From IMG/VR virus record IMGVR_UViG_2909303794_000001: 54,748 nucleotides of DNA; one strand, 5' to 3'. The position numbers were made by a program. The stretch comes from a virus (taxonomy: Duplodnaviria > Heunggongvirae > Uroviricota > Caudoviricetes). Below are positions 15,001 through 18,000 of this stretch, piece by piece. Every line of letters begins with the position of its first letter. Within the stretch, counting starts at the first letter, position 1.

Positions 15001-18000
15001 AGCGGCATTGATGGCGATCGGGCAGGGCGTCAGGAGGGCGGCATGAGGCGACAGCGACGAAGTTTCACCGACATCATCTGCGAAAACTGCAAATACCTTC
15101 CAACGAAACGCTCCAGAAATAAACGCAAGCCAATCCCAAAAGAATCTGACGTAAAAACCTTCAATTACACGGCTCACCTGTGGGATATCCGGTGGCTAAG
15201 ACATCGTGCGAGGAAATGACAATGCTTTTAATTCAACCTGGATTTGGCCTTAGCATCAAAAAAGGACACATGTTTGGCGAGAAAGAGTCTCAACGAAAAA
15301 TGGTGTCGATACAGTTGCCATTTATCAGTATTTATTGGCTAAACAGGGAGGCAACAAATTATTGGTATACATGCGCCAGAGCAGCATTTAACGACCCTGA
15401 CTGGTTTGTGAAAAACCACCACGCAGTTCGTCAGGCAAAGAGAAAGGCCAATACGACGTACATGAAGGCGTATCGAAAAGCATGGAAAGAACACCGCGAT
15501 CGATACCAGCAAGACATGGAAAAGCTTGAATCAGAAAACATGGAATTAAGACGAAAGCTTGGTGAAGCAAAACGAGACATTGATGCTTACAAGCGACTTT
15601 TTAATGGTGAAAGCCATGCTTAGTCCATCCCAATCTCTTCAATACCAGAAAGAAAGCGTCGAGCGAGCTTTAACGTGCGCTAACTGCGGTCAGAAGCTGC
15701 ATGTGCTGGAAGTTCACGTGTGTGAGCGTTGTATATATGAATGCTTAAATATGGTGGAACATAATGAGAAATATAAGCAACATAGACGAATTAAGAAATA
15801 AATTATCATATGATGATGTTTTAGGTGTACTTAGATGGAAAGTGTCTCCTTCTAATAATGTTAAGGTTGGCAGTGTTGCTGGTTACATTAGGAGTGATGG
15901 TTATAGGATGTTAACTATCGATGGTGTAATTACTTATGCTCACCACGTTATATGGATGATAAATAATGGTGAGATTCCATTAGGGTATAAAATTGATCAT
16001 ATAAATGGAGTAAGGTCAGATAATAGGCTATCTAATCTTCGATTGGTTACACACCAACAGAATGCACAGAACCAAAAGAGAAAAATAACCAATTCGTCAG
16101 GAGTGACTGGAGTATATTTCAATAAAGAGAGATTTAAGTGGATTGCGAATATATGCGTAGATGGGCGCACCAAATATCTTGGAATATTTGCTAGCATCAT
16201 TGACGCTATTGCAGAAAGGAAGAGGGCAGAAAAAGAACTGGGTTTTCATGAAAACCATGGCAGACCATAACTGCGCAGAACTGATGAGCGATCCGAATAG
16301 CTCAATGTACGAGGAAGAAGACGATGGCTAAACCAGCGCGAAGACGATGTAACCGTAAAAGAGAAGATTTAACTGTTAAAAGGATATTTGAGTTACTAAG
16401 TTTCGATAAATCTACCGGGGTATTTAGATGGAAAGTTCCCACTCAGGGAAGGATAGCATTAAATAGTGTTGCTGGAACTTTTGATTCCAACGGTTATTCA
16501 ATGATCATGATAGATGGGCGTAGATATAAAACTCACGTCTTAGTTTTTTACATAACTCATAATCGTTGGCCTGCTGGTCAAATTGACCACGTTAATGGAA
16601 TTAGGACCGACAATAGGCCAGAAAATTTAAGAGAATGCCTGCCAATAGAAAATTCAAGAAATATAAGGATCCGAAAGAATAGCAAATCAGGTTGCAGAGG
16701 GGTTACTTGGCACAAACGACAGAAAAAATGGAATGTTAGGCTAGGATTCCATGGCAAGAGTAAACACTTCGGATGCTTTGATGATCTGGAGTTAGCGGTA
16801 CTAGTTGCTGAAGAAGCCCGAGATAAGTATTACGGTGATTTTTCCGGCAACGAAAGGAGCACTTATGCGAATCTATCGAAGGAAATGTAAATGTTGCAAT
16901 GAATGGTTTATACCAAAATATCAAAATCAATATTGGTGTAATGAGATTTGTGGAACCAAGATAGCACTCGAACGACGAAGTAAAGAACGCGAAAAAGCGG
17001 AAAAAGCAGCAGAGAAGAAACGACGACGAGAGGAGCAGAAACAGAAAGATAAACTTAAGATTCAAAAACTCGCCTTAAAGCCCCGCAGTTACTGGATTAA
17101 ACAAGCCCAACAAGCCGTAAACGCCTTCATCAGAGAAAGAGACCGCGACTTACCATGTATCTCGTGCGGAACGCTCACGTCTGCTCAGTGGGATGCCGGA
17201 CATTACCGGACAACTGCTGCGGCACCTCAACTCCGATTTGATGAACGCAATATTCACAAGCAATGCGTGGTGTGCAACCAGCACAAAAGCGGAAATCTCG
17301 TTCCGTATCGCGTCGAACTGATTAGCCGCATCGGGCAGGAAGCAGTAGAGGAAATCGAATCAAACCATAACCGCTATCGCTGGACTGTCGAAGAGTGCAG
17401 GGCCATCAAGGCGGAGTATCAACAGAAACTTAAAAAACTGCGAAACAGCAGAAGTGAGGTTGCATGAATATCTACGAAAGAATTGATGGCAGCAAATACC
17501 GAAATATTTGGGTAGTTGGCGATCTGCACGGATGCTACACGAACCTGATGAAAAAACTGGAGACGATAGGATTCGACACCAAAAAAGACCTGCTTATCTC
17601 GGTGGGCGATTTGGTTGATCGCGGTACAGAGAACGTAGAATGCCTGGAATTAATCACATTCCCCTGGTTCAGAGCTGTACGTGGAAACCATGAGCAAATG
17701 ATGATTGATGGCTTATCAGAGCGTGGAAACGTCAATCACTGGCTGCTTAATGGCGGTGGCTGGTTCTTTAATCTCGATTACGACAAAGAAATTCTGGCTA
17801 AAGCTCTTGCCCATAAAGCAGATGAACTTCCGTTAATCATCGAACTGGTGAGTAAAGGAAAAAAATATGTCATCTGCCACGCCGATTATCCTTGTGATAA
17901 ATACGAGTTTGGAAAGCCAGTTGATCATCAGCAGGTAATCTGGAACCGCGAACGAATCAGCAACTCACAAGACGGGATCGTGAAAGAAATCAAAGGCGCG

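Follow-up and report, generated by a model that had tools for sequence, protein, structure and literature searches.

We describe here two endonuclease gene insertions in the nin region of a lambdoid prophage, IMG/VR virus record IMGVR_UViG_2909303794_000001, which was analyzed over its whole length of 54,748 nt (the window). The prophage carries nleA, and its nin operon has the order ninB, dam, ninE, an open reading frame (ORF) of 147 aa, ninF, ninG, a phosphatase gene, and Q. The original prediction for this DNA placed two HNH-type insertions in conserved nin genes, one splitting ninF and one fused to the start of ninG, and this is what lies at the locus; we refer to the two endonuclease genes as HNH1 and HNH2 (Table 1). 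The junctions were fixed by aligning the region with the insertion-free phage HK630 (locus L002) and with alleles that have only one of the two insertions. Both insertions are poor in G and C (GC 0.349 for insertion 1 and 0.376 for insertion 2, with flanks at about 0.50), a drop that is far beyond chance, and only 82 nt of native DNA (16271-16352) lie between them. HNH1, HNH2, and the host-gene ORFs occupy three different frames, and the gap from the HNH1 ORF to the HNH2 ORF measures 53 nt and not the 60 bp first proposed. A consensus scan for promoters and terminators within both insertions gave nothing above shuffled expectation, with one terminator-like hairpin at 15712-15727 that is within the chance count, and HNH1 and HNH2 are presumably co-transcribed with the delayed-early nin transcript.

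Insertion 1 takes the place of the native bases ACTG in ninF, for a net gain of 539 nt, and native ninF sequence picks up again at 16271. As had been predicted, ninF reads normally for 37 codons, matching the HK630 allele, and then diverges; this 5' part holds the first CxxC and Cys36 of a zinc-ribbon-like motif (Pfam NinF, E 6.4e-12). The complete 168-residue endonuclease ORF foreseen between the ninF parts is also there, with a Pfam HNH_3 match; its stop codon is exactly the right edge of the insertion, so that the sequence outside it amounts to 36 nt on the 5' side and 0 nt on the 3' side, and it is presumably translated from its own ribosome-binding-like site, GGTGGA at 15753-15758. The hybrid NinF ORF that reads into the insertion keeps a Cys codon at position 39 and acquires a basic tail. 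This tail is not conserved in a diverged relative (IYVLLNAGDDHEDNN in L016, described below), which suggests that it is read-through and probably not a selected peptide. The last 19 codons of ninF do begin 545 nt downstream of the native 5' part, at the distance of about 545 bp originally given, but they are not in frame with it as was supposed, because the net insertion is 539 nt. This remnant has a stop codon that overlaps the start of native ninG (ATGGCTAA). Neither a start codon nor a ribosome-binding site belonging to it was found, and its reading frame stays open only as the end of a 56-aa ORF beginning at 16161, within HNH1. We read the event at ninF as a truncation with tail replacement and not as a readable split, and the 3' piece is probably lost. 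In several genomes PGAP places two 'NinF' coding sequences around HNH1, and in several it calls HNH1 itself a partial pseudogene or a 'signature motif containing protein' (e.g. L003 2859-3008); the pseudogene calls are an annotation artefact, the 168-aa ORF being intact in 33 of the 35 copies examined.

Insertion 2 is configured differently. It displaces about 64 nt of native ninG, from the third base of codon 10 to codon 31, and native ninG sequence picks up again at 16949. Up to CGAAGACGATGTAA (16339-16352) the native start segment is identical to that of HK630 ninG, and the second HNH ORF does open with the first nine ninG codons, as predicted; HNH2 is presumably translated from ninG's own ribosome-binding site, GAGGA at 16311-16315, ahead of the ATG at 16324. 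Its left junction is the same in all 62 loci inspected. NinG restarts within the 3' end of the HNH2 ORF, at the ATG at 16865, with its own ribosome-binding site and a variant N-terminus, again in agreement with the original prediction, and the resulting protein is a full-length match to Pfam NinG; PGAP gives the same reconstituted ORF in L004 and L005. What had been overlooked is that the cassette brings with it an AT-rich substitute for ninG codons 1-28. This segment has a GC content of 0.286 vs 0.505 in the displaced lambda-type segment, shares 56% identity with the lambda type and 61% with a P22-like type, and keeps a comparable set of Cys residues (a CxxC and two downstream Cys). It is always paired with HNH2, in 51 of 51 informative IMG/VR loci and in 537 of 537 E. 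coli records. Some copies of HNH2 are damaged: elements of the insertion sequence (IS) family IS3 lie inside it in two E. coli genomes (L017 3051-4264 and L018 1326-2539), of which PK8241 has lost its 3' end and CP032808.1 retains only a 104-aa remnant. The IS-hit copies look like secondary decay of the endonuclease gene.

Table 1. Features of the ninF-ninG region, in positions of the window.
Feature	Coordinates	Strand	Remarks
Native ninF 5' part, codons 1-37	15616..15727	+	Colinear with HK630 ninF up to GTGTGTGAGC (15718-15727)
Hybrid NinF ORF, 61 aa	15616..15801	+	37 native codons and 24 codons read from the insertion (RCIYECLNMVEHNEKYKQHRRIKK)
Insertion 1, 543 nt	15728..16270	+	Junctions relative to HK630 and to loci with the second insertion only
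HNH1, putative HNH-AP2 endonuclease ORF, 168 aa	15764..16270	+	
ninF 3' remnant, 19 codons (CAELMSDPNSSMYEEEDDG) and stop	16272..16331	+	Different frame from the 5' part
Native ninG start, codons 1-9 (MAKPARRRC) and 2 nt of codon 10	16324..16352	+	Now the presumed translation start of HNH2
HNH2, putative HNH-AP2 endonuclease ORF, 188 aa	16324..16890	+	In-frame fusion to ninG codons 1-9
Insertion 2, 596-nt cassette	16353..16948	+	HNH2 body and substitute ninG 5' end
Diverged AT-rich ninG 5' segment, codons 1-28	16865..16948	+	Behind AAGGAG (16854-16859)
Reconstituted ninG/rap ORF, 200 aa	16865..17467	+	Pfam NinG, E 1.6e-83, model positions 5-192/193

The two proteins match Pfam HNH_3 (PF13392) well above its gathering score of 24.8, with 70.1 bits for HNH1 (E 1.2e-19) and 42.7 bits for HNH2 (E 4.2e-11). 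The AP2 half of the HNH-AP2 label originally applied to them is not borne out by Pfam, as the AP2 match in HNH2 is below threshold (22.2 bits, E 1.8e-4, vs a cut-off of 33.3) and none was reported in HNH1 at E ≤ 0.01, although some homologues carry a precomputed PF00847. A PDB sequence search with HNH2 likewise gave a marginal AP2 match only (E 0.19), and fold comparison was therefore needed. AlphaFold models (predicted local distance difference test scores of 91.3 for HNH1 and 89.8 for HNH2) show the same two-domain layout in both, with a predicted beta-beta-alpha-metal nuclease domain resembling that of I-HmuI (PDB 1U3E) and a C-terminal domain modeled as a three-stranded sheet and a helix in the AP2/ERF fold; the assignment of an AP2 domain is thus one of predicted structure. 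In HNH2 the model is less confident for the nine ninG-derived residues at the N-terminus and for the last 15 or so at the C-terminus, as would fit appended sequence. Residues D78, H79, N91, and N100 of HNH1 and D88, H89, N101, and N110 of HNH2 fall in columns that are invariant or at least 90% conserved among 74-75 homologues. By analogy with I-HmuI, we take these to be the catalytic Asp-His pair, the structural Asn, and the metal-binding Asn.

HNH1 and HNH2 are homologous and diverged, as had been supposed, with 37% identity over 136 aa (E 4e-30); they are members of one large family and not recent duplicates. Among sequenced phages there are more than 3,000 matches, at up to about 52% identity to HNH1 and 44% to HNH2, mostly in virulent phages, often several per genome, and many of them annotated as homing endonucleases. 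Packaging-type HNH proteins such as HK97 gp74 were considered and dropped, since they belong to another Pfam family and the genes described here are in the nin operon and not beside the terminase.

The original prediction would have been refuted if related phages had this architecture natively and no insertion-free alleles existed, but such alleles are abundant: in addition to HK630, the native segment comprising the end of ninF and the start of ninG occurs at about 2,640 places in 1,704 of the 5,426 complete E. coli genomes surveyed. HNH1 is found at 46 places in 44 of these genomes, and HNH2 at 570 places in 537 of them (about 10%), mostly in Stx-type prophages. Among 50,697 phage records HNH1 is absent at ≥60% identity, and HNH2 occurs in two sequenced phages only, the Stx1 phages AU6Stx1 and SH2026Stx1, where it is annotated as 'putative HNH endonuclease'. 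The two insertions occur together in none of the 5,426 E. coli genomes, and in six other GenBank/ENA contigs that represent at least three mosaic backgrounds. About ten doubles would be predicted under independence if no correction is made for clonal sampling or for HNH2 copies without ninF, and the lack of them could be due to co-conversion, with each element erasing the other, or to nothing more than clonal sampling. The pair in the window is thus a rare combination of two independent elements. This is where we part from the original prediction, which saw repeated homing into the same spot: the two endonucleases are different family members, their junctions are 625 bp apart in two genes, and they are normally found singly.

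Other HNH endonuclease genes are present elsewhere in the nin regions of other E. coli prophages. In strain AST240 such genes are situated before ninB and after Q (L003 897-1508 and 5442-5803), and at L139 an ORF beginning MSDVKEKDIPGFEGIYKVTENGDI (NUMOD4-like) lies directly 3' of ninF. To judge from these cases, the nin region may be a place where HNH endonuclease genes commonly land.

Insertion-free, single-insertion, and double-insertion alleles are all represented, with identical junctions throughout, those of insertion 1 being identical in at least 28 IMG/VR loci. Nucleotide diversity within the cassettes is about 0.005 (0.0047 for insertion 2), compared to 0.02-0.03 for the adjoining parts of ninF and 0.036 for the remainder of ninG; both insertions are thus four to eight times less diverse than their flanks, and diversity climbs right at the junctions. 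Copies of cassette 2 with identical haplotypes adjoin ninG 3' parts that show differences at as many as 53 of 512 sites (about 10%), ninG alleles with the putative homing endonuclease gene (HEG) are as diverse as those that are HEG-less, and cassette 1 is found in at least three upstream contexts (ninF 5' types) and with six or more different downstream genes. These patterns show the cassettes to be younger than the DNA around them and to have moved into many mosaic backgrounds, although low diversity and spread alone do not separate nuclease-driven homing from ordinary lambdoid mosaic recombination. The diverged locus L016 (1-909, from Logan SRR25288770) contains an 85%-identical relative of HNH1 at the same site in a diverged ninF, with IHVCEKCIY... 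on the left side and a right remnant that reads ADPNGQMLEKDDG up to its stop; its endonuclease ORF is eight codons longer and runs into the ninF remnant, and a ybcO-like gene comes next instead of ninG. The ORFs are intact at 33 of 35 loci for HNH1 and 62 of 63 for HNH2, and synonymous and non-synonymous variants are about equally numerous, giving a rough ratio of non-synonymous to synonymous substitution rates (dN/dS) of about 0.3.

Taken together, these observations lead us to favor, as the probable explanation, two independent free-standing HNH-AP2 HEG cassettes with different, adjacent target genes. Both would have been acquired from AT-rich phage DNA and lodged in neighboring delayed-early genes of a lambdoid prophage. 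Cassette 1 sits in ninF between the codons for Cys39 and Cys40, cutting NinF short after its zinc-ribbon-like core, swapping its acidic tail for read-through codons, and stranding its 3' end out of frame. HNH2 would have lost its own start and come to use the ribosome-binding site and first nine codons of ninG, with the cassette supplying a strong new ribosome-binding site and diverged ninG codons 1-28 from which full-length NinG/Rap could still be made. The fusion at ninG codon 9, which is the same in every copy, would most simply derive from a single illegitimate joining at or near a break in native ninG that was then propagated. By analogy with the T4 Seg and Mob enzymes and with I-HmuI, we infer that each enzyme would be transcribed with the nin operon during lytic growth or co-infection. 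When a related phage that lacks the HEG replicates in the same cell, the enzyme would nick or cut the ninF or ninG DNA of that phage, either at the insertion site or close to it, whereupon recombinational repair from the HEG-carrying genome would copy the cassette in. The carrier would be protected, since in ninF its target is broken up by the insertion and in ninG a version of 56% identity has taken its place. If the target of HNH2 is the displaced segment, then a recoded ninG 5' end is what would be expected, since the carrier needs Rap/NinG and also needs protection from cleavage.

There are several points that weigh against this explanation. That the enzymes cut DNA, that they do so at these targets, that carriers are immune, and that inheritance is biased are all inferred. 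The dN/dS ratio indicates only moderate constraint on the endonuclease genes, and given the mosaicism of lambdoid phages, ordinary recombination could likewise put a young insert into many backgrounds. HEGs tend to spare the gene that they occupy, whereas cassette 1 disrupts ninF, albeit a small gene of no known function. Free-standing homing endonucleases often cleave DNA hundreds of bp away from where their genes are inserted (PMC2988022), and the actual targets may therefore lie elsewhere than precisely at ninF codon 39 and ninG codon 10. Neither an AT-rich donor of cassette 2 nor a HEG-less ninG of the variant type was found: a protein search with the 41-aa variant NinG N-terminus returned E. 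coli fragments only, a degenerate DNA pattern of the variant ninG 5' end matched none of 185,579 species-representative genomes and, in IMG/VR, HNH2-linked copies only, and the nearest HNH2 relatives (43-47% identity) do not adjoin ninG.

Other scenarios must also be considered. Each HNH gene could have entered once by illegitimate recombination and then spread as passive cargo through general homologous recombination, the endonucleases being inactive or irrelevant to the process. Mosaic exchange would be frequent here in any event, with ninF acting as a conserved 'linker' among many alternative genes, and the modest ORF constraint, the copies hit by IS elements or frameshifts, and the fact that enzyme activity is presumed all accord with such a history. 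We nonetheless consider it unlikely, as 95 of the 98 ORF copies are intact with their catalytic residues kept, the rise in diversity is sharp and exactly at the cassette junctions, and the same site in a diverged ninF holds a diverged relative; passive spread also leaves unexplained why the ninG stretch that cassette 2 displaces is the very one of which it brings a diverged copy. That the nucleases have been domesticated or weaponised and chiefly benefit the phage, either through marker exclusion of competing lambdoid or Stx phages or as AP2-type DNA-binding regulators, seems to us a good deal less probable still. T-even phages are known to show HEG-driven marker exclusion with competitive benefit (PMC2988022), the AP2 fold binds DNA, and HNH2 is common, with 537 of 5,426 genomes carrying it, mostly in Stx-type prophages. 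However, the retention of catalytic residues makes a purely regulatory role unlikely, the present evidence does not distinguish phage benefit from selfish spread, and a benefit to the phage is compatible with the HEG explanation and not exclusive of it.

An endonuclease ORF inside a coding sequence is also the classical picture of an intron- or intein-borne enzyme, with ninF and ninG restored by RNA or protein splicing, but here we regard splicing as having next to no chance of being correct, and reject it. There is no Rfam family match at E ≤ 1 in 14500-18500, nor one at this region in a gathering-threshold scan of the whole window, and the non-coding part of insertion 1 described above leaves little room for an intron. 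The net insertion of 539 nt and the use of three different frames are incompatible with restoration of the host ORFs, no Hint domain is present (HNH_3 and AP2 being the only Pfam domains found), and ninG is equipped with a start codon and ribosome-binding site of its own.

A further and more speculative set of proposals can be entertained, which we advance tentatively and regard as somewhat doubtful: that the two enzymes do work as nucleases in temperate lambdoid and Stx phages, that ninF/ninG is a nuclease-driven recombination hotspot, that cassette 2 is a self-immunising 're-heading' element, and that the two neighbors erase each other by co-conversion. Mutual erasure could follow from the mere 82 nt of native DNA between the HEGs, and would explain why none of the 5,426 genomes has both. 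A self-immunising cassette 2 would be one that hijacks the translation start of its target and carries a recoded, cleavage-resistant 5' end. HEGs have been studied almost entirely in virulent phages (T4, SPO1, and T5, for example), and these two are in the best-understood temperate family, in genes that neighbor those for Orf/NinB and Rap/NinG, which act in recombination. Were the two enzymes active, they would generate mosaic joints at ninF/ninG in a directed way and would influence DNA exchange among Stx and other lambdoid prophages. Cassette 2 would in addition offer a clean natural example of a selfish gene that seizes the start signals of a host gene and keeps that gene working by means of a recoded 5' end.

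Elsewhere in the window, the right end has an ORF (51642-53036, minus strand) with a match to nleA, a type III effector gene, together with a transposase remnant and an Ibs/Sib toxin-antitoxin locus (53614-53756, minus strand; Rfam SIB_RNA, 142 bits), and these mark an effector-carrying lambdoid prophage of an attaching/effacing-type host. Rfam also identifies the lambda cIII thermoregulator (6153-6211, minus strand), a tRNA-Met downstream of Q (18928-19003, plus strand), and the small RNA STnc100 (19853-20025, plus strand) upstream of a 616-aa ORF in the late region.

HNH genes in this part of lambdoid genomes have been seen before, as 'HNH' boxes are marked in published ninR maps (PMC4118853) and the genes are already annotated in RefSeq; in the open-access literature we found no description of the ninF and ninG insertions, their junctions, or the carried ninG 5' end. 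Phage HNH-AP2 homing endonucleases are a known family according to Magnani et al. 2004, as cited in PMC10448857. HNH1 and HNH2 resemble them in the HNH_3/His-Me finger N-terminus, the predicted C-terminal AP2 fold, the length of about 160-190 aa, and their occurrence as AT-rich free-standing ORFs in phage genomes, and relatives at 40-50% identity number in the thousands among virulent Klebsiella, Salmonella, T5-like, and Jersey-like phages. Unlike those relatives, they lie in temperate lambdoid E. coli prophages and inside nin genes. I-HmuI differs from both in being intron-encoded and in having NUMOD and helix-turn-helix DNA-binding modules and no AP2.

Intronless homing by free-standing HEGs is established for SegF, SegG, and MobE of T4-type phages, and genes split by HEGs include nrdA of Aeh1 (mobE) and gene 39/60 (mobA) (PMC2988022). 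The nin insertions share with these the presence of an endonuclease gene without an intron or intein in or beside a conserved gene, a host gene in pieces, and presence/absence polymorphism among related phages, and co-conversion of flanks would be expected in both. However, the halves of the T4-type split genes are both translated and reassemble into an essential enzyme, whereas the ninF 3' piece is startless and out of frame, and ninG is not split but re-headed by the substitute 5' end that the cassette carries. The ShiLan insertion in a phage methylase gene (PMC11855218) stays in frame through its host gene, whereas HNH2 is joined in frame at its 5' junction only, with ninG restarting independently. 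A parallel to HNH2 and its fusion to ninG codons 1-9 is gene 31 of Salmonella phage epsilon34, a P22-like (lambdoid) temperate phage, in which an HNH HEG is fused in frame to the N-terminus of the resident early gene eaE (PMC2629481); that gene is in the early-left operon, its HNH lineage is related to enzymes of Gram-positive phages, and a carried replacement of the host-gene 5' end is not described for it. We view the ninF and ninG insertions as a well-documented instance of a known phenomenon and not as a new one.

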